From IMG/VR virus record IMGVR_UViG_3300002460_000027: DNA of 64,000 nt; one strand, given 5' to 3'. A program made the position numbers and the translations under genes. Positions 1-62,270 of this stretch are shown piece by piece (the first letter of the stretch is position 1; the number at the start of each line of letters is the position of its first letter). The notes under the pieces are model-generated. The model made no database searches, was not told the origin of the DNA, and worked only from the letters and a program-made list of their open reading frames with translations. The stretch is from a virus.

Positions 1-705
1 CATCCCGGGGCGGAGCGCTTCGGCCAAGTCAAGCATCCGGGCGGCGGGCAGGTGCGGGACGAAGATCTCCCCGCCCTGCATGTCCTGGATCGCGTCCGTC
101 ACGAACTGGACTGCTTGGGGCATGGTGATGATGAAACGGGTGGCGAGGGGGTCCGTGATGGTCAGCGGCAGCGGCTGGGCCCGCCACGTGTGGACGACCG
201 AGCCGCGTGACCCCAGCACGTTGCCGTACCGGAGCACGCTGGAGAGGGTGCCGCTCGGGGCTCCGTAGGTGTTGTAGGCCACTGTCATCCACTCGGCTTG
301 GGCTTTGGAGACGCCGTAAGCGTTCGTAGCATAGCACGCTTTGTCCGACGATATAAGCAGCACACGGCGGACATCAGCGAGGTGTGCGGCTCTGAGCACG
401 TTGCGAGTTCCGAGTACATTAGTCTGAAATACCTCGTCAGGGTCACGGGCCACGCTGTCAACACGCTTGAGAGCCGCCGCGTGTACCACCGCATCAACTG
501 GAGCAAATGCCAATGTGAGCCGGTCTTGGTCACGGACATCTCCTAGGAAGAAGTCCACACGCGGGTCGGGGATCGCCGCCCGCATCTGGGCTTGCTTCAG
601 TTCGTCTCGGGACAGCACGACCACGCGCCAGTCGGTTGTGGCGAGCACGTGGCGGGTGAGCGCGTGGCCGAGAGAGCCGGTGCCGCCCGTGATGAGGAGT
701 CTCAT
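1..705 (-). CDS. pseB: PseB/FlaA1-like UDP-GlcNAc 4,6-dehydratase, 5' part (complete copy at 51238-52200)
   Basis: Identical to 51496-52200; starts MRLLITGGTGSLG (ATG at 705). Confidence 0.85.
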   Translation of the reverse strand, partial: MRLLITGGTGSLGHALTRHVLATTDWRVVVLSRDELKQAQMRAAIPDPRVDFFLGDVRDQDRLTLAFAPVDAVVHAAALKRVDSVARDPDEVFQTNVLGTRNVLRAAHLADVRRVLLISSDKACYATNAYGVSKAQAEWMTVAYNTYGAPSGTLSSVLRYGNVLGSRGSVVHTWRAQPLPLTITDPLATRFIITMPQAVQFVTDAIQDMQGGEIFVPHLPAARMLDLAEALRPGM

Positions 706-971
706 CTGGATACGCTGAACCAACATGGAGAAAGTCCCCATACTCTTATAGTATTCCGTACGTTCTCACACTCTGCTTGTGTGTCAAATGGACCCACAAC
801 CGTAGCTGGCGCTCCCCCACCAAACAGCCCTCCTGAGTTGCCAGGGATAAGAAACCACCAAGCCAAGACGATAATTAGTCTGAGCCTCATCACAGCCACA
901 CATGCCCCCCATCCGGCAGCACCTGCCCCCACGTTGCCGGGCAGGTGAACGGATGCCCCCAAAACGTCCAC
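702..971 (-). CDS. small hypothetical membrane/secreted protein (likely start near MRLRLIIVLAWW)
   Basis: Hydrophobic N-terminal stretch; fills the gap between polymerase and dehydratase. Confidence 0.5.
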   Translation of the reverse strand: MDVLGASVHLPGNVGAGAAGWGACVAVMRLRLIIVLAWWFLIPGNSGGLFGGGAPATVVGPFDTQAECENVRNTIRVWGLSPCWFSVSR

Positions 972-1903
972 TCCCGTTCAACCAGCCCCCGGAGGGTCGC
1001 GTGTGCGAGGTCCGGGGAGATACGGTCTGGAAACCCGACCTCCGCCCCGTCATGCCGGTTGACCACCAGCCAGCACTCGGGGAGGACCGCTGTCAGCCCG
1101 ATCAGCGTGAGGTTCATCATGTCTGAGACCGTGGCAGAGATGGTGTGCGACCAGCCTTCCTTGGCGCGGGCACGACGATCACCAGACAGCCTTCTAAGTC
1201 GCCCGAACCCGGAACGAGCCAGACCCGTGTCAGCGCAAGACTGCTGCGCGGCCATTTTGGCGGCCACGAACCGTGGCTTAGCGCGGAGATAGGCCTTACC
1301 AAAGTCCTCAAGCTCTCGCCGGGTATAGCCAAGTTTCTCTACCCCCTTGGCATTGAGGATACCACGGTGGTCCTCCGCATACAAGAGGGCGTAGCGGGCC
1401 GTCTTGGCCATGTGACGCTGGGCGTCGGTCACGGGCGGCTCGACGTTGAACATGCGGCAGGCCGTCAGCGTGTGGACGTCGGCCCCGGAGGCGAAGGCGT
1501 CCAAGTCTTCCTGGTCTTGGCAGTAGGTGGCGGCGAGTCGGGCTTCGACGGCTTGCCAGTCGAACGTGAGCCAGTAGGTTCCGGGATCTGGCACGAGCAC
1601 GCCCCGAACATCTCGCGGGCACCAGGTATCCTCCACGTGCGGCAACTGGCACACGGACAGATCATGCCGTGGGAAGTTGGTAAGGGGGGGACTAGTAGTA
1701 CTCCACCGTCCTGAAGCCTGGGCAGTAGGGAGCATGAGTGGGTAGATACGGTCCCGTTCGGCCAGATCAGCAACATAGCGTCGTATCCCCTCTAGTTCTG
1801 TGTGGGCCAGCCTAGCGTCCAGCACGTCCGAGATGACCCCATGCCGCCGGAGGGCCTCAAGGGTGTCGGCCTCAACGCTGTGGGGCGGGCGGCGCTTGGG
1901 CAT
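890..1903 (-). CDS. polA: DNA polymerase family A, polymerase (thumb/palm/fingers) part
   Basis: GRWSTTSPPLTNFP, motif A DWQAVEARLAA, DVHTLTA, motif B RHMAKTARYALLY, motif C NRHDG; start could be 1903 or 1969. Confidence 0.9.
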   Translation of the reverse strand: MPKRRPPHSVEADTLEALRRHGVISDVLDARLAHTELEGIRRYVADLAERDRIYPLMLPTAQASGRWSTTSPPLTNFPRHDLSVCQLPHVEDTWCPRDVRGVLVPDPGTYWLTFDWQAVEARLAATYCQDQEDLDAFASGADVHTLTACRMFNVEPPVTDAQRHMAKTARYALLYAEDHRGILNAKGVEKLGYTRRELEDFGKAYLRAKPRFVAAKMAAQQSCADTGLARSGFGRLRRLSGDRRARAKEGWSHTISATVSDMMNLTLIGLTAVLPECWLVVNRHDGAEVGFPDRISPDLAHATLRGLVEREWTFWGHPFTCPATWGQVLPDGGHVWL

Positions 1904-2048
1904 GGACGGTCTGTTGGGTACAGTTCCAGCATGTAGCAGCGGTTTCTGGCTTGATGAGTACCCACCCATATGGCCACGAGTTCCACTCCCGGCCGAGCGG
2001 TATCACGTGCCCACAAGCATACACGTTCCCGGCCAGGGTCACCGCCAT
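1872..2048 (-). CDS. 58-aa Cys/His micro-protein (CGHV...CWNC), divergent family member lying between the two polymerase ORFs
   Basis: MAVTLAGNVYACGHVIPLGREWNSWPYGWVLIKPETAATCWNCTQQTVHAQAPPAPQR; ATG overlaps the upstream TGA. Confidence 0.6.
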   Translation of the reverse strand: MAVTLAGNVYACGHVIPLGREWNSWPYGWVLIKPETAATCWNCTQQTVHAQAPPAPQR

Positions 2049-3412
2049 CGTTCTACCCCATACCCCTGCGCGGCCACCTGCGGACCAGAGCGGAGGTTCA
2101 ACGGCCAGCCGGCCGCTGCTTGAGCTTCCAGTGCAATCGTATGCTGGGCATCCCGCAAAGAGAGCACAGCCCGTTTGGCTCGTAGGGCATCCACTCGTAT
2201 GCCCACCCTGCGCGCCATAGCAACGATACGCAGAAGCGGCAGTAGCGCGTGTCTGTAGACCCACTCGCTGGCTGGGTCTCGGGCCAGCTCGTCTCGGAGT
2301 CCCTGCCAGACGTCCCACGTTCCGAGCGCGTCCCCTGCCGCGTACTCGACCGGGTTGGCTTGGGAGAGGTGCTTCCAGCGGTTCGTACGGGCATAGAGGC
2401 TCCCCAGGAAGTCCAGGTCGTGAGCCAGTTCCGAATAGAGCGCGTGATGGGCATACATGGTGTCCTCGTGTGTCACCGGAACGGTGCCGAAGAACTCCTC
2501 TAGGCGGTCAATGTCCGCGTCGGCTTGGTGGAAGATAACGTGCGGCATCTGGGCTGAGGTGCCAAGCATCCTTGGCAGAGGCTCGTCCGCGTCCACTACC
2601 CAGACTTTCTCCCCGTCCGACGCAGACCATCTGACGAGGTGCCGTTCCTGCCCCTGCTCCCAGAACTCCGTGTCAAACGCAAACTCAGCCGGCCACGCCG
2701 CCATCGCCCGCCGGATCGGCGGCATCGGCTGGGGCCAGCGCCCCGCCAGCAGCTCGCCGAGCTTCTGCCAGTCCCGAAGCGCGGCTGGCTTGAGCCACGG
2801 GGCCTCGTAGATCGCGGCTGGGTGAAGGGTAGCGTACACCACCATCCCGCCTCCCGGCGGCGTCCATACGTGCGAGGCCGTCTGACGCTTGAAGGGGGAC
2901 CACGGTAGCACCCACCCGCGCCACCCGGCTATCTTTCGTGAGATGCCGTAGGGGGGCGGGTCGCCGCCGTCTTCCCCTGTGGTGGCCCAGAGTGCGTAAC
3001 CGCCGAGGGCGACGACAACCATACACGCCGCCGGGGGTCGAAAGTATGCCTGCTGGCAGTGCTGGATCGCGTTTCTGACCTCCACTCGTTCCAATGTAGG
3101 TAGCTGGTTAGAGCCACCAACGCGGCATCGGACGACATTGGCGAGGGAAACGTCTTCTCGCACCAAGCCAGCAAGCGGGAGGTACGTTCGTCCCAGGTCA
3201 TAGCCGGAGTCTCCGATGAAGGGGGCGGGCTCGCCCGGCTCCCACTTCTTGAGCCGGCCCGCCCGGCCGACGAGCCGCTCCCCACGTTCTTCGTGCTCAC
3301 CGGGGGCCTGCCCTAAGACCAAGACGGGGACGGGCCGGTACTCGTCCGGCACCATCCACCGCCCTTTGGTCTCGAAGGGGCAGCCGCGACATCCGGGGCC
3401 CTTTGGGATCAC
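2039..3412 (-). CDS. family-4 uracil-DNA-glycosylase-like domain fused to PolA 3'-5' exonuclease (N-terminal half of DNA polymerase)
   Basis: CRGCP, VLGQAPG, PFIGDSG, NVVRCR, ALG, TLHPAA (UDG4); FDTE, FHQADAD, EDTM, YAAGDA (Exo I-III); PLNLRSGPQV (thumb start). GTG start at 3412 inferred. Confidence 0.85.
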   Translation of the reverse strand: MIPKGPGCRGCPFETKGRWMVPDEYRPVPVLVLGQAPGEHEERGERLVGRAGRLKKWEPGEPAPFIGDSGYDLGRTYLPLAGLVREDVSLANVVRCRVGGSNQLPTLERVEVRNAIQHCQQAYFRPPAACMVVVALGGYALWATTGEDGGDPPPYGISRKIAGWRGWVLPWSPFKRQTASHVWTPPGGGMVVYATLHPAAIYEAPWLKPAALRDWQKLGELLAGRWPQPMPPIRRAMAAWPAEFAFDTEFWEQGQERHLVRWSASDGEKVWVVDADEPLPRMLGTSAQMPHVIFHQADADIDRLEEFFGTVPVTHEDTMYAHHALYSELAHDLDFLGSLYARTNRWKHLSQANPVEYAAGDALGTWDVWQGLRDELARDPASEWVYRHALLPLLRIVAMARRVGIRVDALRAKRAVLSLRDAQHTIALEAQAAAGWPLNLRSGPQVAAQGYGVERWR

Positions 3413-3417
3413 CCAAC

Positions 3418-3909
3418 CTAGTCCCGCACAGGACTCAGCGCCACGACGAAGTTGCTGGGCTCTGGGAACCGCTCGTTGCCTTCCAGCCGCCGGATACGGA
3501 GCCGGACGGGGTAGTCCCGCACGTACCCAGCCACCTCGGCCAGGGTGTCCGGGTCGCGGCCGTTCGCCGTCTTGAAGGCGGTCACGGCCTGTGTCCACCG
3601 CTGGGAACTGGCATCCGGCCGCCCGGAGTCGTTCGTCACCCGGTCGGGGGACATCGTGAGCCCGATCCCACCCTTCTCGCCCGTGACCTCGTGCTGCACC
3701 TGCGCGAAGAAGCGGTACTCAATCCGGCCGCGCTCGCCCCCGCCGTTGTCCTGCACCTTCGTCCGGTCGGAGACTCGCGCCGTCAGCGTCAGGGCGGGCA
3801 GCGTCCGATACGTCCCCTCGGTGAGAAGCAGCGCAGTCTGCGTCTCCTTGTCCTGCTCGGCCTGCTCCTGCGTGTACGCTCGTGCCAACAGTTCGTCCAT
3901 GCCTTCCAT
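3418..3909 (-). CDS. hypothetical protein, possible ssDNA-binding protein by position
   Basis: Follows the Sak4-like and exonuclease genes; no diagnostic motif. Confidence 0.45.
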   Translation of the reverse strand: MEGMDELLARAYTQEQAEQDKETQTALLLTEGTYRTLPALTLTARVSDRTKVQDNGGGERGRIEYRFFAQVQHEVTGEKGGIGLTMSPDRVTNDSGRPDASSQRWTQAVTAFKTANGRDPDTLAEVAGYVRDYPVRLRIRRLEGNERFPEPSNFVVALSPVRD

Positions 3910-3910
3910 T

Positions 3911-4078
3911 TTATCTTCCCCCTTGGCTCAAACAGGGCCTGTGATGAATTATCGGCAGACTGCACCTGCAACATCCCGTTTTGGTTAGTGGCATTACTAC
4001 GTGAGTGGGCCAAATCCCTACAGCGTTCCAGACACACACATGCCCGCAACTCTCGACATACGTTTGCAGCGTTCTCAT
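3911..4078 (-). CDS. 55-aa CGHVC...CCRC micro-protein
   Basis: MRTLQTYVESCGHVCVWNAVGIWPTHVVMPLTKTGCCRCSLPIIHHRPCLSQGGR; ATGA overlap with upstream stop. Confidence 0.7.
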   Translation of the reverse strand: MRTLQTYVESCGHVCVWNAVGIWPTHVVMPLTKTGCCRCSLPIIHHRPCLSQGGR

Positions 4079-4839
4079 GGTTTCAGCAACGGTTCCAGCT
4101 TGCGGAAGTCCGGCGGCTCCAGCTTGTTCGGGAGTCGCGCCGCCATCTCGGGCGGGAGCTTGACCCCGACCCCCCAGACCTTCCCCGCCGGCCGGATCTG
4201 CCAGCGTGCGGTGACCTTCCCCTGCGGGGTGGGCGGGTCCACTTCCGCGTACAGCACGACCGAGAACTCGCCCACGATCCGTGACGCCATCATGCCCGGC
4301 AGGTCGGGGAAGATGTGGCTCGGCGCGTTCTTGGACTTGTCGGTCGGGTCGTCCTTCGTGCGGCCTTCCCATGCCGTCATTACAACATACGGCACCTGGG
4401 ATTGCAAGACTTTGTTGAGGTACGCCCCGAAGTCCCGGTGGGCCTTCCCGTAGGCTTGCCCGACCGTCTCCTCCCGCTGCCCAAGGTCGAGCCACGCCCG
4501 CTCGAAGTACCACGTGTAGAGTTTGTGGACGCCGTCCCCCACGAACGTCATGCACTCGCCGTGCTTGCCGGCCAAGAGTTCCGTCGTGAGCGTTTCGACC
4601 TCGGTCACGACGGCGTGTGGGGAGAGTTTCGCGGGGTCGGCCACCTCCCAGATCCAGGCGGTGTGGTCCGGATTGTCACGCGGGATCGTCTCGTAGCCCT
4701 TCTCGCCCGGGTAGGAGACATGCTGCCGATGGGCCGGCCACGTGAAGCACGCCGTTGTCTTGAGCGTGTTGGGGGGGCCGGAGATGAGCACCCGGCGACC
4801 GTAGTGGGGCGTGGCGTCTTGCCAGCGTTTAAAGGGCAT
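4075..4839 (-). CDS. Sak4/AAA_24-like phage NTP-binding recombination protein
   Basis: Walker-A-like ISGPPNTLKTT, Walker-B-like FVGDG, VVMTAWE, PDLPG; next to the exonuclease. Confidence 0.7.
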   Translation of the reverse strand: MPFKRWQDATPHYGRRVLISGPPNTLKTTACFTWPAHRQHVSYPGEKGYETIPRDNPDHTAWIWEVADPAKLSPHAVVTEVETLTTELLAGKHGECMTFVGDGVHKLYTWYFERAWLDLGQREETVGQAYGKAHRDFGAYLNKVLQSQVPYVVMTAWEGRTKDDPTDKSKNAPSHIFPDLPGMMASRIVGEFSVVLYAEVDPPTPQGKVTARWQIRPAGKVWGVGVKLPPEMAARLPNKLEPPDFRKLEPLLKP

Positions 4840-5080
4840 GAAGGTTTCCTTGTCGAATGTAATACGAGGTTAGCCCGTAGTATGTGTTACTGCTTGTTTC
4901 TCTCAGCCCCACTGGGGCAAACTTTATTACAGCCCCAAGCGGTCCGTCGTAACCCTCACACGCCTCTAGAAATGCTGCTAGCAGTGTGGTAGCGCAGACT
5001 TGTTTGTTTTCGATTCCACCAGAACTTACGATCCACCCTTCCGCGCACATTGGTTCAGTTAGGGCGTCTCTCAAGGGCAT
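4829..5080 (-). CDS. hypothetical protein
   Basis: Open frame overlapping neighbours at both ends; lower GC. Confidence 0.45.
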   Translation of the reverse strand: MPLRDALTEPMCAEGWIVSSGGIENKQVCATTLLAAFLEACEGYDGPLGAVIKFAPVGLRETSSNTYYGLTSYYIRQGNLHAL

Positions 5081-5277
5081 CAGGTGTCCTTTCGAGAGTT
5101 ACACGATTGACAACCCCAACCATGAGGACGCGCCTGTGGCGTACACCGGCAACACCCCTCTTTGAGTATAACAATCACCTTACCATTTAGGTTTGTGAGT
5201 GGTGGCATCAACACATGCCCACACTCAGGCACCTCAACAAACCATGTTCCATCAAACCTTCCGTTCCAGCCGGCCAT
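5080..5277 (-). CDS. 65-aa CGHV...CCRC micro-protein
   Basis: MAGWNGRFDGTWFVEVPECGHVLMPPLTNLNGKVIVILKEGCCRCTPQARPHGWGCQSCNSRKDT. Confidence 0.65.
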   Translation of the reverse strand: MAGWNGRFDGTWFVEVPECGHVLMPPLTNLNGKVIVILKEGCCRCTPQARPHGWGCQSCNSRKDT

Positions 5278-6046
5278 AAGCACTCTCCATCTGGTCTGGG
5301 TCCAAGTGTAGCACATGACAAGCTGGGATATACTCACACGGGCCGTACTTGCCGTAACAGGCCGTGAAGTTCGGGGTGGAGTCTCGACACCACGGCTCGT
5401 CTTCATCAAACGTTTTGTCCATGTCAAACCATGCCTGCTCAGCCCCTTTTAGCCAAAACGTGAGCCGGGCGGGGGTCACCTCGACAGGGTGGAGGAACGT
5501 CTGCACACGCGGGGCCAGTTGGATCATGTGAACCCGGGCCCACGAGACAGGCTCCCGCAACACCTCACCGACCTCCCACGCATAATGGAAGAGCTGGTGA
5601 CTGGTGAAGTATTCGGTCAGTTTGTCCTCACCGGCCCGCATCGTGACCTTCGTGTCCGTCACCACGAGCCCTTGACCGGGGATGCGCTGCACGAGGTCCG
5701 GGCGGGCGGTGCTCGGCAGGGGCTCATCCACCATCAACACCTCGCCGTGGTCTCGCAGGTTGTCCCCGCGTCCGGCCTCGTACCCCTTCTGGGCCAGCTT
5801 GACCAGCGCCTCCCGCGTCCAGGTGTCGTTGTCCCGGAAGCCCTCCAGGATGACGCGGCGCAGCGTGTCCTCGGGAACTGGGGTTGGGTGGCCCCGATAG
5901 TGTTCGGAGAGCGCGTCCCCGATGGCGGACCCCAAGAGCATGTTCGGGGTCCATACCCTACCCAGCGGCTCCCAAGAACGCTTTAGAGTCGCGTACATAG
6001 GACACCGGAGCCAGTCAGCGGTACGGCTTGGGCTGTAGGATGGCAT
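5252..6046 (-). CDS. PD-(D/E)xK exonuclease, Cas4/RecB-like with probable Fe-S cluster
   Basis: SPSRTADWLRCP, RPDLV, VVTDTK, QLFHY, C-terminal C...C.Y...C. Confidence 0.8.
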   Translation of the reverse strand: MPSYSPSRTADWLRCPMYATLKRSWEPLGRVWTPNMLLGSAIGDALSEHYRGHPTPVPEDTLRRVILEGFRDNDTWTREALVKLAQKGYEAGRGDNLRDHGEVLMVDEPLPSTARPDLVQRIPGQGLVVTDTKVTMRAGEDKLTEYFTSHQLFHYAWEVGEVLREPVSWARVHMIQLAPRVQTFLHPVEVTPARLTFWLKGAEQAWFDMDKTFDEDEPWCRDSTPNFTACYGKYGPCEYIPACHVLHLDPDQMESAYGRLERKV

Positions 6047-6051
6047 TCTAG

Positions 6052-6258
6052 TCAGCGCTTACCGCCTAGGGGAGGGCTTCCTTTGGGCCGGAGACGTCTG
6101 CCGGCCTCGCGCCGAGCGGCCCCCACACCACTCACGCACCGTGAGCAGGTGTATATAGCTGGTTTCTCAGGCAAATACGGCCATCGAAGCTCTCCACATC
6201 TGGCGCAGGAGACCTCGTATGTCTGATGATGCTTCAAGTGGGTGCAGATGGTGGCCAT
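6052..6258 (-). CDS. small zinc-finger protein (CARC...CSRC)
   Basis: Two CxxC pairs; upstream SD-like GGAG. Confidence 0.55.
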   Translation of the reverse strand: MATICTHLKHHQTYEVSCARCGELRWPYLPEKPAIYTCSRCVSGVGAARREAGRRLRPKGSPPLGGKR

Positions 6259-6269
6259 GCTCGTGTCTC

Positions 6270-6443
6270 CTAGCCTCTTCTACGACAGGCACAGAGGGCA
6301 CTATAGTCGTCTGTGATTCCATTCCCCGATGTTTCTCCCCGGCACCGGCAACACATACTTATTGTCCTTGGGTAGACCCACGCAGCCTCTGTCCTCTCAA
6401 CACACACATGCGGGCATTTTGTGTGGTAGTACACACTAAGCAA
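6270..6443 (-). CDS. about 57-aa CPHVC...CCRC micro-protein
   Basis: LSVYYHTKCPHVCVERTEAAWVYPRTISMCCRCRGETSG...LCAC; TTG start inferred from overlap with upstream TAG, alternative start 6488. Confidence 0.65.
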   Translation of the reverse strand: MLSVYYHTKCPHVCVERTEAAWVYPRTISMCCRCRGETSGNGITDDYSALCACRRRG

Positions 6444-6666
6444 AACTCTGCCGTGTGGTGACACGCCGCCGTTTGAGTTCATCGACACTCACCACTCTAC
6501 ACAGATTGCCGTTCTTGTCAAGCACCCTGACGGGCCCGTACGGTCGCTCGGGTGGCTCGGGGAGTCGGACTTCGTGGAGGGCTGACAACCCGACCAGCGA
6601 GTGTTCAAGCATCCGAGAGTCTACCTTCTCGGTCTCAGGCTTCTTGTGATGCGAGCGTCTTGGCAT
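6436..6666 (-). CDS. hypothetical protein (MPRRSHHKK...)
   Basis: GGGAGG SD upstream of ATG 6666. Confidence 0.55.
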   Translation of the reverse strand: MPRRSHHKKPETEKVDSRMLEHSLVGLSALHEVRLPEPPERPYGPVRVLDKNGNLCRVVSVDELKRRRVTTRQSFA

Positions 6667-6688
6667 ACGCGCCTCCCTTTGGTAGAAT
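6660..6688 (+). promoter_or_regulatory. sigma70-type promoter with extended -10; probably leaderless for the helicase
   Basis: TTGGCA(6660-65)-17 bp-TAGAAT(6683-88) with TGG before -10; GTG start 7 nt downstream. Confidence 0.6.
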
Positions 6689-6695
6689 GTGAATC

Positions 6696-7481
6696 GTGCC
6701 CCTCGACCTCTCGCGCCTGCTGACCGAAACCCCGCAAGAACCACACTGGGTGGCGAACGGGATGCTGCCGCGTGGTACGCTCGTGGTGCTGGCCGGCGAC
6801 GCAGGAGTCGGCAAGAGTTTCCTGAGCTACACGCTGGCGTTCTCGGTGGCGGCCGGGCTGCCGTTCCTCGGGCGACGGGTGGAGCAGACCCGGGTGCTCT
6901 ACGTGGATGAGGAAAACTCCCTGCCAGACTTGCAAGCCTACCTGCGCTGGGTCTGGCTGGGGGTGGGGAGGCCGGACATCACGCGGCTGTCCCAGTTTCT
7001 CCACGTGGAGCACTTCACCCTTGGCCGTCAGTGGCAAGATCAGCTCACCCGCGAGTGTCTGGCGTTCCGGCCCGGGCTCATCATCGTAGACACGGCCACG
7101 TCCGCCCTCAAGATCCAGGACGAGAACGACAACGCCGAGGCCGCCCGCGTCATCTCGGGGTTGCACCAAGCCCGGGCGGCCAGCCACAACGACGCCACGG
7201 TGCTCGTGCTCAAGCACGCCAAGGTGTTGGAAGACACCCAGCACCGCCGGACGGTTCGCGGGGCAAAAGTCTGGCTTGGGCAGGCCGATGCCGTCTGGTT
7301 CCACCACGCCAAGTCCGGGCGACCACGGAAGGACGGCCTCCGACCGACCGTGCTGGAACCCGACAAAGTGCGGGCCTGGGGGCTCCGAGAGGGGGTCTCG
7401 ATTACCCCCGAGTGGACGACTGAGGAACCCCGTGGGATTAAACTCATTGGGCAGTCGCTCATTTCCCAACCCGCCAAGTAG
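6696..7481 (+). CDS. RecA-fold AAA_25/RepA-type helicase
   Basis: LVVLAGDAGVGKSFL Walker A, VLYVDEEN, LIIVDT Walker B, LKHAK, RGAKVW. Confidence 0.8.
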   Translation: MPLDLSRLLTETPQEPHWVANGMLPRGTLVVLAGDAGVGKSFLSYTLAFSVAAGLPFLGRRVEQTRVLYVDEENSLPDLQAYLRWVWLGVGRPDITRLSQFLHVEHFTLGRQWQDQLTRECLAFRPGLIIVDTATSALKIQDENDNAEAARVISGLHQARAASHNDATVLVLKHAKVLEDTQHRRTVRGAKVWLGQADAVWFHHAKSGRPRKDGLRPTVLEPDKVRAWGLREGVSITPEWTTEEPRGIKLIGQSLISQPAK

Positions 7482-7549
7482 TTGAAAAGGCGTCGATCTG
7501 ACATGCCATTAATTGGCTACCCTTATACAGAAGGGGAAGCCCTCACGAG

Positions 7550-7891
7550 GTGGCCATGAGACGTTGCCTTTGCTCCCACAAGATGCTGAAGACGAAGTGC
7601 CGAATCTGCCTACAAAAGAGGCAATCCACTCGCCAATACTGGAAGAGAGCGGCCAAGTTGAAGCGACTCGGTTTGACCCCGGCAGATTATGAGATTTTCC
7701 TAGAAGTCCAAGGCGGTCTGTGTGCATTTTGCGGGCGCGTGCCAACACACCGAAGGCTGGCGGTTGACCACAATCACAAGACAGGGAAGGTTCGTGGTCT
7801 TCTCTGCTATCGTTGCAACCGTTTCCTTGTTGGCTTTCATACCATCTCAACAGCCAAGCGATTGTTGGCATATCTACTTACCAGAGATTGA
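7550..7891 (+). CDS. endonuclease VII-like HNH nuclease
   Basis: QGGLCAFCG...LAVDHNHKTGKVRGLLCYRCN. Confidence 0.85.
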   Translation: MAMRRCLCSHKMLKTKCRICLQKRQSTRQYWKRAAKLKRLGLTPADYEIFLEVQGGLCAFCGRVPTHRRLAVDHNHKTGKVRGLLCYRCNRFLVGFHTISTAKRLLAYLLTRD

Positions 7892-8098
7892 AGCATCCTC
7901 CCCCCAATCCCAGCCCCGAACGAAGGTGCCGGTGGCGTAGGGGCAGTAGTTTCCATCTAGTTTCCTACCATCGCAGCGACAGCAGTCATACCCATCAACT
8001 CGGGTGACTATGGCCTGATCCACTTTTTTTGCATGCTCGTCTCGTCTATGTGGACACACATGCCCGCAGTTCCCTACCAGGAGCCAGATTCTAAGCAC
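7874..8098 (-). CDS. 74-aa CGHVC...CCRC micro-protein
   Basis: MLRIWLLVGNCGHVCPH...DGYDCCRCDGRKLDGNYC; GTG overlaps upstream TAG. Confidence 0.7.
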   Translation of the reverse strand: MLRIWLLVGNCGHVCPHRRDEHAKKVDQAIVTRVDGYDCCRCDGRKLDGNYCPYATGTFVRGWDWGEDASISGK

Positions 8099-9230
8099 GC
8101 CGCACCACCTGAGCCCCAGCCGGGACGGGCTCCCCAGCTCCGACCACCCACAGGTCAGCCTCAGCCCCCACCGGCCATCCGTCAGCCGTGCCCCCGTCTG
8201 TCAGCCACACTGTTTGCTTGTCAGGATCGCGGTGCTCGCCAGCCGCCCGGATGAGGGTGCCGCCGCCCGCCGACCGGCACATGGCCAGGACTGCCCCCAC
8301 GTCCGAGGCGTCCACGGGCTCCCGACACAGGTGGTCGAACACCACCACGTCCGAGCTGGCTAGCTCAGGGGTCGAGCACACCGCCGCTAAGAGTTGCCCC
8401 AACAGCTCGTCCCCAATGCTTCCCGAGGCGTCCAGCATGAACCGGGCTGCGCGGGCTTCCCCACGGGCCGAGCCCGGCAGGAGGTCCGGGTTGACGCGGT
8501 GTGCCCGCCGCCAAGACCGCAACCGCTCCTCTCTGGCCACGACCCGCGTCACCAACCAGTCCAGCACCTCTTGTATCCACGGGGGGCATGCGGGGAGCGT
8601 AGGAGTTGGCCGCATCCCGTTCCCGTTTGGCCCAGCGTCTCCCAGCACCGCCCGCCCCACCGCCGAGGCTTTCATCCGGCTGGCCAACGTGGAATCGGCC
8701 AAGGAATGGCCAGCAGCCCCGCATGTATGCCCTTGGAACGGTTTGGCTTCCTTCACAATGATGTCATAGAGGCGCTCAGACGGCATTAGCGTCAGAGGGC
8801 GTTTGAGACTCTTGGAAAGACGTTCGTAGGTTACAGACTCCCAGTCACATTCCCGATCTACTACTTCCCAGTCAGACTCTTTGAGCCCATGAATATTGGC
8901 GTCGGTCGCAATGTTCCACGCCAAGACTGGATTTTGGCCACTGGGGTCTGTCAGCACGACGTTTCGATCACCGTGCCGAGCCCAGCATCCGTGGGCCACG
9001 TGGCTGGCTTCGTGGCGCAGGATTTCTACACGAGCGGCGTGCGGCGCTCGCTCCCAGAGCTTCCCGAGCAGGAGCGTCAGCCGCCCATCCTCCAACAGAC
9101 TCCCGACTGTCGGCACCTCAGGCGCGTGGCGTACCTCGTCGACGAGAGCGAGGAAGTTTGTCACGTCGGGCGGCCACGGAGAGGCATCGGGTAGAGCAAC
9201 TGTCCAGTCTACAACGGCAGCAGGGTTCAC
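8091..9230 (-). CDS. HEXXH metallopeptidase-like domain + vWA domain protein (DUF2201-type)
   Basis: ILRHEASHVAHG, WNIATDANI, MLDASGSI (MIDAS), GGGT, WLTDG; SD GGGAGG before GTG. Confidence 0.8.
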   Translation of the reverse strand: MNPAAVVDWTVALPDASPWPPDVTNFLALVDEVRHAPEVPTVGSLLEDGRLTLLLGKLWERAPHAARVEILRHEASHVAHGCWARHGDRNVVLTDPSGQNPVLAWNIATDANIHGLKESDWEVVDRECDWESVTYERLSKSLKRPLTLMPSERLYDIIVKEAKPFQGHTCGAAGHSLADSTLASRMKASAVGRAVLGDAGPNGNGMRPTPTLPACPPWIQEVLDWLVTRVVAREERLRSWRRAHRVNPDLLPGSARGEARAARFMLDASGSIGDELLGQLLAAVCSTPELASSDVVVFDHLCREPVDASDVGAVLAMCRSAGGGTLIRAAGEHRDPDKQTVWLTDGGTADGWPVGAEADLWVVGAGEPVPAGAQVVRRA

Positions 9231-9336
9231 TGTGTACCTCCCTAAAGACCGCTAAGTCGTGAATGCCAGGGTATACACACACGTGTCCACACACCGAGAC
9301 AAACAGGTAATCTGTTATCGGCTTTTCTTTAGCCAC
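9118..9336 (-). CDS. 72-aa CGHVC...CCRC micro-protein
   Basis: MAKEKPITDYLFVSVCGHVCVYPG...EPCCRCRLDSC; overlaps the start of the vWA gene. Confidence 0.65.
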   Translation of the reverse strand: MAKEKPITDYLFVSVCGHVCVYPGIHDLAVFREVHSEPCCRCRLDSCSTRCLSVAARRDKLPRSRRRGTPRA

Positions 9337-9506
9337 GTCTGGACCCCATGCTCAGACACTCTCTGTCGTGGGTGGGAAGACTAGGATCAGTATCACACCG
9401 GCAACACTCAACATACTTTCCGTTCCCGGCCAAACTGTATTGGCCTACCCAGACACAGATATGTCCACACCGCCTTACTTGGACCCAGAGCTTTTCTTTA
9501 GCCACG
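9321..9506. repeat. 17-bp direct repeat GCTTTTCTTTAGCCACG at 9321-9337 and 9490-9506
   Basis: Seen directly; each copy encodes the MAKEK start of a micro-protein. Confidence 0.85.
9329..9505 (-). CDS. 58-aa CGHIC...CCRC micro-protein (not in the supplied ORF track)
   Basis: Hand translation from GTG 9505: MAKEKLWVQVRRCGHICVWVGQYSLAGNGKYVECCRCDTDPSLPTHDRECLSMGSRRG. Confidence 0.7.
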   Translation of the reverse strand: MAKEKLWVQVRRCGHICVWVGQYSLAGNGKYVECCRCDTDPSLPTHDRECLSMGSRRG

Positions 9507-10488
9507 CCCGAATCTCCTTCATGGCCGCGTCCCGCTTCTCCGGGGCTCCGATGCCCTCGAACACGACTGGGTTGCCAAACACCGCCTCATACGCTCGCTG
9601 CCACTCGCCCGAGGTGTCCTCGTTGACGCGGTTGACAATCGTTTGGAGCGCTAGTCGCTTGGGCTCAGGCCCAGGCCCGGTCAGCACGTCGATGGCTGAC
9701 TCCACAAACTGGCGTGGGGTGCAGGACGTGGCCCACTCTTCAGGGCTCACCGTCACCCGATGCTGGGCCAGCCTGGACAGCACCACGTCCCGCATGGCCG
9801 TGTCACACAGCCCTTGAATGACGAGGGTGCGGACGACCTCTCGCTCCTGTCCCCAGAAGTCGGCATCCTCGACCCACGGCGTCAGGCGATGAGCGGCCCG
9901 TGGGGAGCGTTCCCGCTCCGGCAACCGAATGGGCGGCGGGGCGTCGTAGAGCCCGTCCCAGAGCCACGTGTTCCGCTTGAGGTCGTCCCGTTCGAGGATG
10001 CGCGTATCCGGCCCCGGGTAGGGGAGCAGCAGCAGCCGGGAGAGCAGCTCGGGCCGCAGGGGGCGCTTGGGCTCGTTCATGGCCGCCACGAGCGCGACCG
10101 TAGGGTGGAGCGTTGTGAAGCGTATTCTCCGCTCCTCAAGGAGCGAGAGCAGCCCAGACTGGTTGTCCTCTCGGGCCTTGTCCAACTCATCGATCACCAG
10201 TGCCCACCCACCCCTGCCTATCAGCTCCGGCGGGATCATGCTGGGTTGGGTAAAGCGCAGGAAGCCCTCGCTATCCTTGAACGGGTGACCCCCTTCATCT
10301 TCGGGCAGGTCAACTTGCGGGTTGTAGAACACTACGGGGTCATATCCAGCCCCGCGCAGCACCATTCCGATTGAGCGCGTCTTTCCCCACCCAGTCGGCC
10401 CGACGAGACAGGGGACACCCCGAACCGGGTCCTTTGAGGCTTTCACGATGATCCACTCGATGCCGGCTCCGATCCCTGCGTTTGCCAT
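9475..10488 (-). CDS. MoxR/dynein-related AAA+ ATPase
   Basis: LVGPTGWGKT Walker A, LVIDELDKA Walker B, VAAMN sensor I, LLSR; TAATG coupling at 10488. Confidence 0.8.
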   Translation of the reverse strand: MANAGIGAGIEWIIVKASKDPVRGVPCLVGPTGWGKTRSIGMVLRGAGYDPVVFYNPQVDLPEDEGGHPFKDSEGFLRFTQPSMIPPELIGRGGWALVIDELDKAREDNQSGLLSLLEERRIRFTTLHPTVALVAAMNEPKRPLRPELLSRLLLLPYPGPDTRILERDDLKRNTWLWDGLYDAPPPIRLPERERSPRAAHRLTPWVEDADFWGQEREVVRTLVIQGLCDTAMRDVVLSRLAQHRVTVSPEEWATSCTPRQFVESAIDVLTGPGPEPKRLALQTIVNRVNEDTSGEWQRAYEAVFGNPVVFEGIGAPEKRDAAMKEIRAWLKKSSGSK

Positions 10489-10775
10489 TAGTGGGCCTCC
10501 AACCATGCGTTGATGAGAGGAAGGGCTTTCTTTCGCTCGGTTGTCCTATCGGAGCCCAGCGCAGCCACAATTTCGTCAGTGTCAAACACGAAGTTGTATG
10601 CGGTGGGCCACCCCGTTCGCCCAAAGTGCTGATCCACGCTCACCCGCTCGATGATTACTCGCAAAGCGTTCCTCGTGTCGTTTGGGTCGGCCCGCTCCAA
10701 CTTGTCCAGCACCGTGGCCACAAACTCCTTTGGCGTGCAGCGTGTTGCCCAGTTGACGAGTTCAGAGTTTGCCAT
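10488..10775 (-). CDS. 95-aa stand-alone paralogue of the AAA+ ATPase C-terminal domain
   Basis: WATRCTPKEFV...RNALRVIIERV...WPTAYNFVF...INAWL aligns with the ATPase tail. Confidence 0.75.
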   Translation of the reverse strand: MANSELVNWATRCTPKEFVATVLDKLERADPNDTRNALRVIIERVSVDQHFGRTGWPTAYNFVFDTDEIVAALGSDRTTERKKALPLINAWLEAH

Positions 10776-10818
10776 CGCTCCCCCTGTGTGGTATACTACA
10801 CTTGTCGGAGTCTGACCG

Positions 10819-11094
10819 CTAGCGGTCCTGCACACCCCCACCCGCGCGTTCCTCCAACACTTTGATCTCCGTCTCCATCCCCACCGCTACCTCATCCAGG
10901 GTGCGCGTGATCGCGTCCCTCGGCCCCCCGGGCGGTTGCCGGAGCCGGGCCCAGTCGTGCCGGAGGGCCAGCAGCTCCCGCAGCAGGTAGCGGAGCACGT
11001 CGGTTGGCGGTTCTGAGTGTCCCTGCACCCGGCACGTCACAGGACACCGATCCAGCGTAGGGTAAGCAGCGTCGTGACCCCCCACAACATCCAC
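10819..11094 (-). CDS. hypothetical protein
   Basis: Co-oriented ORF in the small early-gene array. Confidence 0.4.
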   Translation of the reverse strand: MDVVGGHDAAYPTLDRCPVTCRVQGHSEPPTDVLRYLLRELLALRHDWARLRQPPGGPRDAITRTLDEVAVGMETEIKVLEERAGGGVQDR

Positions 11095-11103
11095 TCGGTC
11101 AGA

Positions 11104-11316
11104 CTAGGCTTCGTCATGGTCTTTCTCCAACAGCGGATGCTTTCCAGTCTTATCAAACAGCCGGTGAGCTGCTTGGACTTTCCTGAGTGCCGCCTGATAG
11201 CACCCCTTCCGTGGAAGATTCGCCAAGTGTCCACTCTCAGACTCGATAAGGTACTGGAAGAGCGTTACGACTGACAACTGGTTACGCTTCACGTCTTGCA
11301 TGCGGATCTTACTCAT
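11104..11316 (-). CDS. hypothetical protein
   Basis: ATGA-coupled small ORF. Confidence 0.5.
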   Translation of the reverse strand: MSKIRMQDVKRNQLSVVTLFQYLIESESGHLANLPRKGCYQAALRKVQAAHRLFDKTGKHPLLEKDHDEA

Positions 11317-11521
11317 GTCGCACCGTCTCTTTCATGGCTTGCCTGAGCTGTTGCACCTCAGCCCGAAGTTGTGCCCGTTCGAGGATCAACCTGAGCATAT
11401 ACACCCGTGTCGAGCAGCGGTCAAGCGTTTCTTTGTCCATGTCAGCCTCCCAAGAGCCCCAACACAATCGACCATGTGGCGATGGCAGCGCTCAGGGCGG
11501 CGATGGCAAGGATGTCTTGGG

Positions 11522-11872
11522 TCATGTCGTCTCTCCTGACAATTCGTTTTCAATTGAGGTTAACCCATCAGCCAATGCTGTTAGCATTACCTCATTGGCT
11601 GTACCATATCCCTTGTTGGCATCTACAATGGCCACAATCCTATTGTAAAGAGATTTCCCTACTTGATTATTTGTGACAATTGTAAACCGCTTTATACCAT
11701 CTCCCCCCTTGCCTTTGGCGGTTGGCATTTCAGGTTTGCTCGGGCCAAGTTCACGATTGGTTGCCGCTTTCGCGGTGGCAGGCTTTGGTTTAGGGGTCGG
11801 GACACGGGGGATCTTCTCTGGGACTAGTCGCGTCCATCCCCCAGACGGTGGATACTTGCCGGTTGATGACAT
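11522..11872 (-). CDS. hypothetical protein, Pro/Lys-rich N-terminus
   Basis: Coupled to neighbours; lower GC. Confidence 0.55.
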   Translation of the reverse strand: MSSTGKYPPSGGWTRLVPEKIPRVPTPKPKPATAKAATNRELGPSKPEMPTAKGKGGDGIKRFTIVTNNQVGKSLYNRIVAIVDANKGYGTANEVMLTALADGLTSIENELSGETT

Positions 11873-11874
11873 GG

Positions 11875-12159
11875 TTAAACGCGGACCTTGGTGAGGGCGG
11901 CGCGGGCTTCGTCCACATGGTTCGCCATTGCGAGCAACGCTCCTGCGCCCAGCTTGCCATCACGCTGCCACTTCTCAACCCATGCTGTCATTGTTTCCAG
12001 CGCTGCCAGCAGGTCCGGCGCGGCGGCAATGAGGGGGGCGTTGGCTCTGAGTTCTCCGGTTTCATCCACCGCCTCGGCAATCAGAGAGTCTCGGGCCATG
12101 ATCCAAGCACTCTTTCCGTCTATCAACACGGTCCACGGTCCCGGCGTGTGGGCGGTCAT
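11875..12159 (-). CDS. phage hypothetical protein (HTPGPW...LIAAAPDLLAALE family)
   Basis: Recognisable motif common in phage early regions; start MTAHTPGPW. Confidence 0.65.
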   Translation of the reverse strand: MTAHTPGPWTVLIDGKSAWIMARDSLIAEAVDETGELRANAPLIAAAPDLLAALETMTAWVEKWQRDGKLGAGALLAMANHVDEARAALTKVRV

Positions 12160-12422
12160 GCCGTCCCCCCCCTCGCCTTGGCGATGGCGGCGCGGGCCTT
12201 GAGGTAAGCTACGAACCCATCTCCGTGTTGATTCCATTCTGGTGTATCGCCAGCCCGTTCAGCCAAGTCATGCAACACAGTTTCTGCCCCTTCCAGCGCC
12301 GCCAGCAGGTCCGCGTTGATGGCCTTGAGGCGGTCATATCCGGCACGGCCCCAACACTTCGGACAGGCCCCAATGCCGAAACAGTATCTACAGCCATAGG
12401 TTTCCGGCGTGTGGGCGGTCAT
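12156..12422 (-). CDS. hypothetical protein partly paralogous to the downstream gene
   Basis: MTAHTP start, CxxCxGxGxCxxC, ADLLAALE, ARAAIAKA. Confidence 0.6.
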   Translation of the reverse strand: MTAHTPETYGCRYCFGIGACPKCWGRAGYDRLKAINADLLAALEGAETVLHDLAERAGDTPEWNQHGDGFVAYLKARAAIAKARGGTA

Positions 12423-12628
12423 GGCGTCACCTCCACCCCGCACGCAGCGAGGAACCGGGCACGGTCGAAGTTGGGGTTGAAGTTAGCACATGTCGCGCTG
12501 ATCCTAGTGGCGGTCTGGTTGATAACCGCCCGAGCGTAGGCCCGCCCATCAGGGTTGTCAATCAGTCTCACATCCTCCCGCGCTTGCCTGATTGCCGCTG
12601 CCAGCGCCTCAAAGTGCTTCTTAGTCAT
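12419..12628 (-). CDS. phage hypothetical protein (MTKKHFEALA...NPNFDRARFLAACG family)
   Basis: Recognisable phage motif; GAGGTG SD. Confidence 0.7.
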   Translation of the reverse strand: MTKKHFEALAAAIRQAREDVRLIDNPDGRAYARAVINQTATRISATCANFNPNFDRARFLAACGVEVTP

Positions 12629-51237: not shown

Positions 51238-52200
51238 TCATACGCCCTCCTCCGGCACACTCTCACACAGGTTCCGCAACGTCGCCACGTCCAATCCCGG
51301 CGCGGCATCAGACGTGCGAGCCCCGGGGGTCACCAAGGGCTCGTTCGCCCACGCCGGCTTGTCCGTCCACGGGTGGAAGAAGGGCGGCACGATGCTGACC
51401 CGGCCGACGTCCACGGCCCGCTCGGACTCCTCAGCGGTCAAGAGCGTCTCGTGCCGTTTCTCCCCACCCGGGCGCGGGCCGGTGTCTACCCACGACATCC
51501 CGGGGCGGAGCGCTTCGGCCAAGTCAAGCATCCGGGCGGCGGGCAGGTGCGGGACGAAGATCTCCCCGCCCTGCATGTCCTGGATCGCGTCCGTCACGAA
51601 CTGGACTGCTTGGGGCATGGTGATGATGAAACGGGTGGCGAGGGGGTCCGTGATGGTCAGCGGCAGCGGCTGGGCCCGCCACGTGTGGACGACCGAGCCG
51701 CGTGACCCCAGCACGTTGCCGTACCGGAGCACGCTGGAGAGGGTGCCGCTCGGGGCTCCGTAGGTGTTGTAGGCCACTGTCATCCACTCGGCTTGGGCTT
51801 TGGAGACGCCGTAAGCGTTCGTAGCATAGCACGCTTTGTCCGACGATATAAGCAGCACACGGCGGACATCAGCGAGGTGTGCGGCTCTGAGCACGTTGCG
51901 AGTTCCGAGTACATTAGTCTGAAATACCTCGTCAGGGTCACGGGCCACGCTGTCAACACGCTTGAGAGCCGCCGCGTGTACCACCGCATCAACTGGAGCA
52001 AATGCCAATGTGAGCCGGTCTTGGTCACGGACATCTCCTAGGAAGAAGTCCACACGCGGGTCGGGGATCGCCGCCCGCATCTGGGCTTGCTTCAGTTCGT
52101 CTCGGGACAGCACGACCACGCGCCAGTCGGTTGTGGCGAGCACGTGGCGGGTGAGCGCGTGGCCGAGAGAGCCGGTGCCGCCCGTGATGAGGAGTCTCAT
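51238..52200 (-). CDS. pseB: UDP-N-acetylglucosamine 4,6-dehydratase, PseB/FlaA1-like
   Basis: ITGGTGSLG, GDVRD, HAAALKRV, SSDKA, YGVSK, RYGNVLGSRGSV, ITDPLATRF, GGEIFVP, RPGGEKRHE. Confidence 0.9.
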   Translation of the reverse strand: MRLLITGGTGSLGHALTRHVLATTDWRVVVLSRDELKQAQMRAAIPDPRVDFFLGDVRDQDRLTLAFAPVDAVVHAAALKRVDSVARDPDEVFQTNVLGTRNVLRAAHLADVRRVLLISSDKACYATNAYGVSKAQAEWMTVAYNTYGAPSGTLSSVLRYGNVLGSRGSVVHTWRAQPLPLTITDPLATRFIITMPQAVQFVTDAIQDMQGGEIFVPHLPAARMLDLAEALRPGMSWVDTGPRPGGEKRHETLLTAEESERAVDVGRVSIVPPFFHPWTDKPAWANEPLVTPGARTSDAAPGLDVATLRNLCESVPEEGV

Positions 52201-52384
52201 CTGGATACGCTGAACCAACATGGAGAAAGTCCCCATACTCTTATAGTATTCCGTACGTTCTCACACTCTGCTTGTGTGTCAAATGGACCCACAACCGTAG
52301 CTGGCGCTCCCCCACCAAACAGCCCTCCTGAGTTGCCAGGGATAAGAAACCACCAAGCCAAGACGATAATTAGTCTGAGCCTCA

Positions 52385-53398: not shown

Positions 53399-53533
53399 GG
53401 ACGGTCTGTTGGGTACAGTTCCAGCATGTAGCAGCGGTTTCTGGCTTGATGAGTACCCACCCATATGGCCACGAGTTCCACTCCCGGCCGAGCGGTATCA
53501 CGTGCCCACAAGCATACACGTTCCCGGCCAGGG

Positions 53534-54907: not shown

Positions 54908-54912
54908 CCAAC

Positions 54913-55404
54913 CTAGTCCCGCACAGGACTCAGCGCCACGACGAAGTTGCTGGGCTCTGGGAACCGCTCGTTGCCTTCCAGCCGCCGGATACGGAGCCGG
55001 ACGGGGTAGTCCCGCACGTACCCAGCCACCTCGGCCAGGGTGTCCGGGTCGCGGCCGTTCGCCGTCTTGAAGGCGGTCACGGCCTGTGTCCACCGCTGGG
55101 AACTGGCATCCGGCCGCCCGGAGTCGTTCGTCACCCGGTCGGGGGACATCGTGAGCCCGATCCCACCCTTCTCGCCCGTGACCTCGTGCTGCACCTGCGC
55201 GAAGAAGCGGTACTCAATCCGGCCGCGCTCGCCCCCGCCGTTGTCCTGCACCTTCGTCCGGTCGGAGACTCGCGCCGTCAGCGTCAGGGCGGGCAGCGTC
55301 CGATACGTCCCCTCGGTGAGAAGCAGCGCAGTCTGCGTCTCCTTGTCCTGCTCGGCCTGCTCCTGCGTGTACGCTCGTGCCAACAGTTCGTCCATGCCTT
55401 CCAT
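54913..55404 (-). CDS. hypothetical, possible SSB (repeat copy)
   Basis: Same as 3418-3909. Confidence 0.45.
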   Translation of the reverse strand: MEGMDELLARAYTQEQAEQDKETQTALLLTEGTYRTLPALTLTARVSDRTKVQDNGGGERGRIEYRFFAQVQHEVTGEKGGIGLTMSPDRVTNDSGRPDASSQRWTQAVTAFKTANGRDPDTLAEVAGYVRDYPVRLRIRRLEGNERFPEPSNFVVALSPVRD

Positions 55405-55569
55405 TTTATCTTCCCCCTTGGCTCAAACAGGGCCTGTGATGAATTATCGGCAGACTGCACCTGCAACATCCCGTTTTGGTTAGTGGCATTACTACGTGAG
55501 TGGGCCAAATCCCTACAGCGTTCCAGACACACACATGCCCGCAACTCTCGACATACGTTTGCAGCGTTC

Positions 55570-58976: not shown

Positions 58977-59044
58977 TTGAAAAGGCGTCGATCTGACATG
59001 CCATTAATTGGCTACCCTTATACAGAAGGGGAAGCCCTCACGAG

Positions 59045-60969: not shown

Positions 60970-61983
60970 TTACTTGGACCCAGAGCTTTTCTTTAGCCAC
61001 GCCCGAATCTCCTTCATGGCCGCGTCCCGCTTCTCCGGGGCTCCGATGCCCTCGAACACGACTGGGTTGCCAAACACCGCCTCATACGCTCGCTGCCACT
61101 CGCCCGAGGTGTCCTCGTTGACGCGGTTGACAATCGTTTGGAGCGCTAGTCGCTTGGGCTCAGGCCCAGGCCCGGTCAGCACGTCGATGGCTGACTCCAC
61201 AAACTGGCGTGGGGTGCAGGACGTGGCCCACTCTTCAGGGCTCACCGTCACCCGATGCTGGGCCAGCCTGGACAGCACCACGTCCCGCATGGCCGTGTCA
61301 CACAGCCCTTGAATGACGAGGGTGCGGACGACCTCTCGCTCCTGTCCCCAGAAGTCGGCATCCTCGACCCACGGCGTCAGGCGATGAGCGGCCCGTGGGG
61401 AGCGTTCCCGCTCCGGCAACCGAATGGGCGGCGGGGCGTCGTAGAGCCCGTCCCAGAGCCACGTGTTCCGCTTGAGGTCGTCCCGTTCGAGGATGCGCGT
61501 ATCCGGCCCCGGGTAGGGGAGCAGCAGCAGCCGGGAGAGCAGCTCGGGCCGCAGGGGGCGCTTGGGCTCGTTCATGGCCGCCACGAGCGCGACCGTAGGG
61601 TGGAGCGTTGTGAAGCGTATTCTCCGCTCCTCAAGGAGCGAGAGCAGCCCAGACTGGTTGTCCTCTCGGGCCTTGTCCAACTCATCGATCACCAGTGCCC
61701 ACCCACCCCTGCCTATCAGCTCCGGCGGGATCATGCTGGGTTGGGTAAAGCGCAGGAAGCCCTCGCTATCCTTGAACGGGTGACCCCCTTCATCTTCGGG
61801 CAGGTCAACTTGCGGGTTGTAGAACACTACGGGGTCATATCCAGCCCCGCGCAGCACCATTCCGATTGAGCGCGTCTTTCCCCACCCAGTCGGCCCGACG
61901 AGACAGGGGACACCCCGAACCGGGTCCTTTGAGGCTTTCACGATGATCCACTCGATGCCGGCTCCGATCCCTGCGTTTGCCAT
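60970..61983 (-). CDS. MoxR-type AAA+ ATPase (repeat copy)
   Basis: Same as 9475-10488. Confidence 0.8.
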   Translation of the reverse strand: MANAGIGAGIEWIIVKASKDPVRGVPCLVGPTGWGKTRSIGMVLRGAGYDPVVFYNPQVDLPEDEGGHPFKDSEGFLRFTQPSMIPPELIGRGGWALVIDELDKAREDNQSGLLSLLEERRIRFTTLHPTVALVAAMNEPKRPLRPELLSRLLLLPYPGPDTRILERDDLKRNTWLWDGLYDAPPPIRLPERERSPRAAHRLTPWVEDADFWGQEREVVRTLVIQGLCDTAMRDVVLSRLAQHRVTVSPEEWATSCTPRQFVESAIDVLTGPGPEPKRLALQTIVNRVNEDTSGEWQRAYEAVFGNPVVFEGIGAPEKRDAAMKEIRAWLKKSSGSK

Positions 61984-62270
61984 TAGTGGGCCTCCAACCA
62001 TGCGTTGATGAGAGGAAGGGCTTTCTTTCGCTCGGTTGTCCTATCGGAGCCCAGCGCAGCCACAATTTCGTCAGTGTCAAACACGAAGTTGTATGCGGTG
62101 GGCCACCCCGTTCGCCCAAAGTGCTGATCCACGCTCACCCGCTCGATGATTACTCGCAAAGCGTTCCTCGTGTCGTTTGGGTCGGCCCGCTCCAACTTGT
62201 CCAGCACCGTGGCCACAAACTCCTTTGGCGTGCAGCGTGTTGCCCAGTTGACGAGTTCAGAGTTTGCCAT
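61983..62270 (-). CDS. stand-alone paralogue of the ATPase C-terminal domain (repeat copy)
   Basis: Same as 10488-10775. Confidence 0.75.
   Translation of the reverse strand: MANSELVNWATRCTPKEFVATVLDKLERADPNDTRNALRVIIERVSVDQHFGRTGWPTAYNFVFDTDEIVAALGSDRTTERKKALPLINAWLEAH

Follow-up and report, generated by a model that had tools for sequence, protein, structure and literature searches.

A predicted free paralogue of the C-terminal add-on domain of a MoxR-class ATPase in an uncultured phage

In the 64,000-nt stretch of viral DNA analysed here (hereafter, the window), a 95-aa open reading frame (ORF) upstream of a MoxR-class AAA+ ATPase gene is, as judged from sequence comparisons, a true and fast-evolving paralogue of the ATPase's own C-terminal add-on domain. 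Phage pairs of a MoxR ATPase and a metallopeptidase–vWA protein are already known; what is new here is a domain of orphan fold that occurs in both a fused and a free form. We refer to the fused domain as the tail and to the stand-alone protein as the free copy.

The window contains a 51,495-bp phage genome, which fills it 1.24 times: the two ends (1–12505 and 51496–64000) overlap by 12,505 bp with 0 mismatches. Because the window wraps round the genome, the locus is present twice (9475–10775 and again 60970–62270); the region 8091–10900 is repeated unchanged at +51,495, and everything below 12,505 occurs twice. On the minus strand, the order is the small gene at 10819–11094, the free copy, the ATPase, two Cys-rich micro-genes, and the metallopeptidase–vWA gene. 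The features are as follows.

10819..11094, minus strand: small upstream gene with counterparts recognised by eye in related loci (ORF list)
10488..10775, minus strand: free tail-like gene, 95 aa, P0001 (translation; BLASTP against the ATPase tail, E 1e−13; AF2 model)
9475..10488, minus strand: MoxR-class AAA+ ATPase, 337 aa, P0002 (Pfam AAA_5; phrog_1297; structural matches)
9475..9756, minus strand: predicted six-helix add-on at the C-terminus of the ATPase, residues ~249–335 (AF2 helices; kept in relatives)
9329..9505, minus strand: Cys-rich micro-gene of the CGHxC...CCRC type, between the ATPase and vWA genes (ORF list)
9118..9336, minus strand: second Cys-rich micro-gene of the CGHxC...CCRC type (ORF list)
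8091..9230, minus strand: putative metallopeptidase–vWA partner, 379 aa (HEASH and LDASGS motifs; phrog_1314; weak DUF2201 matches)
61983..62270, minus strand: second writing of the free tail-like gene (window wrap)

The free-copy and ATPase genes meet in the sequence CAC TAATG GCA, in which the stop and start codons overlap, so that the TAATG coupling reported in the preliminary description is present in the sequence. The Shine-Dalgarno sequence of the ATPase (GGAGG) lies 7 nt before its ATG, inside the free-copy gene, and a G-rich Shine-Dalgarno sequence precedes the free-copy ATG at 10775. A promoter and terminator scan gave no signal exceeding the shuffled expectation.

The relationship between the free copy and the tail was evident in a pairwise BLASTP comparison, in which residues 9–93 of P0001 aligned with residues 252–331 of P0002 (30/85 identical, 35%; 51.6 bits; E 1e−13 for the pair), a span covering nearly all of the 95-aa protein. 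Furthermore, a free-copy profile built from eight relatives, with no window sequence, retrieved ATPase tails at E 1e−18 to 1e−23, and a tail-only profile of 14 tails retrieved stand-alone proteins at E 1e−6 to 1e−17 (E-values computed with Z set to 1e6). Profiles made without the window sequences thus linked the two groups in each direction, and the homology is not based on a single pair. The end-to-end alignment claimed in the preliminary description was thus borne out, and its interpretation as a diverged domain duplicate is upheld by the significant sequence match, the same predicted six-helix layout, and the conserved gene order. The M-A-N start that it had pointed out is indeed present in both proteins, but must be a coincidence, because the starts differ in the relatives (MSVVEW and MTLTQW; MSKKE and MSELSS).

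The ATPase itself is a MoxR-class AAA+ protein. P0002 matched Pfam AAA_5 (PF07728) over residues 27–151 with 31.5 bits (cut-off 22) and phrog_1297, annotated as 'ATPase', at 5e−13, and its Walker A (GPTGWGKT), Walker B (VIDELD), and sensor 1 (MNEP) motifs were invariant across 12 relatives. The structures nearest to its AF2 model (pLDDT 80) were MoxR-class, namely cso-CbbQ (5c3c; Z 12.1, rmsd 3.5, 156 aligned) and NorQ (9qh7; Z 12.0, 174 aligned), whose matches covered ATPase residues 1–183; dynein, Mdn1, RavA, and BchI came next. All alignments to AAA+ structures fell within residues 1–247 of the model and none extended past 247, and the lid helices corresponded to 197–242. Because the AAA+ structures stop by 247 and the lid helices by 242, the duplicated segment (249–335) is an add-on and not the canonical lid. 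The description of the duplicated unit as the AAA+ C-terminal domain therefore has to be corrected: the part that was copied is an extra domain past the lid. This tail is modelled as a lineage-specific six-helix add-on domain, with predicted helices at 249–255, 258–269, 274–290, 295–304, 307–312, and 316–335 (pLDDT 85–94).

The AF2 model of P0001, obtained from a 28-row alignment, also contained six helices (5–12, 15–26, 31–50, 55–64, 67–71, and 78–94; pLDDT 94.9, pTM 0.86). When the predicted folds of the free copy and the tail were compared, as had been proposed, these helices corresponded one for one with those of the tail, although the two models are only partly independent, given that the alignments behind them overlap. 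Fold searches for relatives of the free copy gave nothing convincing: a best E of 2.8 in the PDB with Foldseek, a best Z of 5.2 among 48,161 chains with VIA-align, no better than the noise level of helical bundles, a best E of 1.7 in BFVD, and only unnamed clusters scoring ≤0.90 in the ESM Atlas. The free copy also matched no Pfam or PHROG family. For now, the modelled fold of the tail and the free copy appears to have no clear relative in the PDB or BFVD and belongs to no recognised family.

The 379-aa protein encoded 245 bp downstream of the ATPase on the same strand carries HEASH, a zinc-binding HExxH motif, and LDASGS, a MIDAS motif (DxSxS). It matched DUF2201_N (15.7 bits; cut-off 23.2) and DUF2201 (18.3 bits; cut-off 26.4), the families PF13203 and PF09967, weakly but in the right order, and matched phrog_1314 at 3.6e−13. 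Its HEASH and LDASGS motifs aligned with HEIAH and LDVSGS of a protein that exceeds the DUF2201_N cut-off and is encoded in L001, an IMG/VR locus from a more distant phage. The ATPase and vWA genes occur in the same order in L001 and in two related metagenomic loci, L051 and L052, in which the ATPase is followed by one or more micro-genes and then by the metallopeptidase–vWA gene. In L001 (5824–8487), a MoxR-like ATPase (431 aa) is followed by a small ORF and then by the DUF2201 metallopeptidase–vWA protein; the longer C-terminus of this ATPase did not match the tail domain profile.

The arrangement was compared across eight JGI metagenome contigs (L049–L056), whose ATPases are 42–78% identical to that of the window. 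Recurrence at other loci, which the preliminary description had proposed as a check, was found in part: 7/8 related loci (L049 and L051–L056) have a free copy upstream of the ATPase, and 0/48 other phage MoxR-like loci have an adjacent duplicate of their own tail. The free copy directly adjoins the ATPase gene in 5/7 and lies ~200–300 bp from it in L053 and L056, so that translational coupling is not general. In L053, the gap between the free copy and the ATPase is filled by a Cys-containing 66-aa ORF (4581–4781). A fused tail was present wherever the end of the ATPase was on the contig (in full in L051 and L052, in part in L049 and L053). The ATPases have diverged to below 50% identity, yet the pair has been kept, indicating that the free and fused copies coexisted across lineages; they appear to have done so since before the phage lineages split. 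Look-alikes of the 10819–11094 gene, which had no family match, were seen by eye upstream in L050–L056 (for example, at L050:130–312, L052:4274–4468, and L055:1–210), with the motif ..L(R/L)RDL..(L/I)RHD(V/W)A... All related lineages have Cys-rich micro-genes (C-G-H-x-C ... C-C-R-C), both between the ATPase and vWA genes and elsewhere (window 9118–9505; L051:2434–2637; L052:6044–6595 and 8180–8547; L049:911–1156).

The domain family is very small. Word-index searches recovered 12 ATPase relatives, all metagenomic, and the tail was kept in 12/12. A HMMER scan of 1.84 billion representatives added five further stand-alone proteins (87–105 aa) and two fused representatives, and the profile search yielded nine stand-alone clusters (90% identity) in all, from uncultured soil or groundwater phages. 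No ATPase relatives were found among INPHARED phages, in IMG/VR with single-protein queries, or in a set of one genome per prokaryotic species. When IMG/VR was scanned with the ATPase alignment, 48 loci were obtained, which matched the AAA+ core only. The tail domain was absent from these 48 phage MoxR-like loci, and none of them had an adjacent duplicate of its own tail, the only matches being four weak, non-adjacent ones. Six proteins with long repetitive matches in the representative search (P0016–P0018, P0020, P0025, and P0026) were discounted as spurious: on reading, P0020 and P0026 proved internally repetitive and did not visibly resemble the domain, and P0016–P0018 and P0025 were judged only by 4–12 short matched stretches.

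The free copy evolves several times faster than the ATPase. In the L051–L056 clade, its dN/dS was 0.08–0.44, compared with 0.03–0.08 for the ATPase in the same phages, and the former values indicate that the free copy is a gene maintained by purifying selection. Between the window and L049, the ATPase core is 78% identical and the free copy 39%; between L052 and L055, the respective values are 96% and 72%. The L051 and L052 tails share 94% identity. Residues W9, A10, T14, P15, L26, R44, and A84 are common to the free copies and the tails. Meanwhile, three residues of the loop preceding helix 4 (D291, G294, and E295) are invariant in 11/11 tail lineages and absent from 9/9 free-copy lineages, and Val268 of the tails is replaced by Arg in most free-copy lineages. 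The net charge of the free copies ranges from about −3 to about +12, being acidic in the window and L049 lineages and strongly basic (+7 to +12.5) in L051–L056, whereas 10/11 tails compared are acidic.

The position of the free copy also behaves as an exchangeable slot. L050, which is closely related to L049, has in this slot (2178–2462) an unrelated 69-aa ORF (MKGKIVVAG...), which matched no Pfam family, between flanks that are both homologous. Between L049 (947–1486) and L054, a block of ~540 nt is almost entirely identical; it comprises the whole free-copy gene, which is 100% identical, and part of the preceding CGHVC...CCRC micro-gene. The adjacent ATPase genes have a dS of 0.30 and the sequence farther upstream does not align, a pattern suggesting that the cassette was recently exchanged by recombination. 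The free copies resemble the tail of their own ATPase no more than they do other tails, so that recent re-duplication or gene conversion was rejected. A tree of 29 domain copies was unresolved at its base; the data were compatible with one origin for all free copies (AU p = 0.10) without establishing it.

We tentatively propose, as a reading that is plausible although short of probable, that the free copy acts as an exchangeable trans-acting modulator or adaptor of the phage MoxR/metallopeptidase–vWA machine, and not as a faithful decoy. In the window phage, the free copy would be made together with the ATPase through the overlapping stop and start codons and would act as an accessory trans-acting subunit of the ATPase/metallopeptidase–vWA machine. 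Its shared fold, conserved W-A-x-x-C-T-P-x-x-F start, and helix-3 Arg could allow it to dock where tail domains dock or pack, and the docked protein might then alter what the machine engages, or when. Such a protein would be a variable regulator or adaptor, in principle like the eukaryotic microProteins. Several points weaken this proposal. Adjacency alone is no proof of joint function, since phages often insert small accessory genes between core genes, and the Cys-rich micro-genes of this locus are just such insertions; the L050 phage has no free copy at the slot, so that the ATPase evidently can do without it, at least in cis; and most of the residues that the free copy has in common with the tail are hydrophobic, and their role may be no more than to stabilise the fold. 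A function independent of the ATPase is conceivable as well: the free copy may have been neofunctionalised into an ATPase-independent accessory derived from the tail, such as a host-takeover or anti-defence factor. Its fast evolution, charge reversal, and cassette replacement and exchange, at a place where further small accessory genes are gained and lost, would all suit such a factor. It is a serious rival, which we nevertheless regard as somewhat unlikely, given that the place upstream of the ATPase has been kept at 42–50% ATPase identity while the surrounding small genes vary, and that there is no third or dispersed copy of the domain elsewhere in the genome.

The preliminary description had listed an adaptor, a decoy or inhibitor, and an alternative specificity module as possible roles. 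As a dominant-negative decoy or inhibitor, the free domain would fill the partner site of the fused tails (on the substrate, the vWA protein, or neighbouring tails) and keep the machine off until the right time. The free copy shares the predicted fold and the N-terminal motif of the tail, its upstream, translationally coupled gene means that it would be present from the start, and microProteins offer a precedent (PMC5381583). A decoy, however, should retain the conserved surface of the tail, and here D291/G294/E295 are missing from the free copies, Arg mostly takes the place of Val268, and the net charge varies by as much as 15 units from lineage to lineage, against conserved tails. Because the tail-specific loop is missing and the charge flips, a faithful decoy is disfavoured and seems to us unlikely; an alternative specificity or regulatory module would fit the evolutionary data better. 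An obligate structural subunit, taking fixed positions in the ATPase ring or collar as part of a hetero-oligomer, would agree with the coupled translation, which suggests a set stoichiometry, and with the conserved arrangement. Paralogous non-catalytic subunits occur in AAA+ assemblies, as in clamp loaders and in BchD beside BchI, and provide a precedent. Yet L050 carries an unrelated gene in the slot, beside which its ATPase is still selected (dN/dS about 0.06), and an obligate interface would not tolerate the 4-fold higher dN/dS and the charge reversal, which leaves such a subunit improbable. Least credible of all is a decaying duplication remnant or spurious ORF; it could be entertained for a small protein without a Pfam or PHROG family, but dN/dS was well below 1 in ten pairwise comparisons, intact ORFs exist in at least nine clusters from different samples, and the fold is predicted very confidently.

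Known systems place the modulator or adaptor proposal in context. Phage MoxR and metallopeptidase–vWA pairs have been described in group 2.2 jumbo phages (Iyer et al. 2021), with a proposed role in virion assembly (PMC7824862), and the MoxR–vWA tail-assembly system of Acidianus two-tailed virus is cited in the same paper (PMC7824862). As in the jumbo phages, an AAA_5 MoxR ATPase is operonic here with a protein that has an N-terminal HExxH and a C-terminal vWA/MIDAS motif. Unlike those pairs, the present one belongs to a 51.5-kb phage, not a jumbo phage, its ATPase has the extra predicted six-helix tail with a free tail paralogue encoded upstream, and it sits among replication genes, so that a role in virion assembly is not evident here. 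In solved MoxR–vWA couples, a finger of the vWA protein enters the pore of the ring and the MIDAS binds carboxylates of the target (PMC13036017 and PMC9976466). The NorQ/NorD and CbbQ/CbbO couples (PMC13036017, PMC9976466, and PMC4660213) share with the phage pair the ATPase core (Z 12) and a vWA partner with a MIDAS, and by analogy the entry of the finger into the ring pore and the binding of carboxylates by the MIDAS would apply here. NorQ and CbbQ end after the lid (~255–270 aa), with neither a tail domain nor a free paralogue, and their partners have no metallopeptidase domain, unlike the ATPase and partner of this phage. By the same analogy, the invariant Glu295 of the tail might serve as a carboxylate ligand of the partner's MIDAS, which is only a lead; the ligand of the MIDAS in known MoxR–vWA couples belongs to the substrate and not to the ATPase (PMC13036017).

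A parallel in domain layout is RavA (PDB 3nbx), likewise of the MoxR class, in which the AAA+ module is followed by an additional domain (LARA) that recruits a specific partner. RavA differs in that it aligned only to residues 1–246 of the ATPase model, and no similarity between LARA and the tail was seen. We know of no free LARA paralogue. With the eukaryotic microProteins (PMC5381583 and PMC9638782), the free copy has in common that it is a small single-domain protein related to a domain of a larger multidomain protein: it is 95 aa long and predicted to fold as a single domain of six helices, and its match to the ATPase tail has an E of 1e−13. The definition of microProteins, however, requires that they have been shown to interact with their relatives and to regulate them, whereas the free copy is likened to them by sequence and predicted fold, and the concept has mostly been applied to plant and animal transcription factors (PMC5381583 and PMC9638782). 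That the free copy is a viral microProtein, retargeting or regulating the phage's own AAA+ machine through a diversifying free paralogue of a docking domain with a helical fold without known relatives, is the bolder version of our proposal, and one that we consider doubtful. If the free copy does modulate the ring, the microProtein principle would extend to viruses and to AAA+ machines. Phage MoxR/metallopeptidase–vWA pairs are widespread and the choice of targets by MoxR proteins is poorly understood, and this lineage offers a handle on the function of the pairs as well as on target choice; both forms of the domain, free and fused, are small, modelled with confidence, and easy to express, which would allow binding partners to be isolated directly. 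With only nine clusters in the family, its general impact would be limited unless the principle recurs elsewhere.

A side observation concerns the annotation of the partner protein. The best PHROG match of the metallopeptidase–vWA protein, phrog_1314, carries the label 'HNH endonuclease'; in view of the protein's HExxH and MIDAS motifs and its matches to DUF2201, this label seems to be a misannotation.
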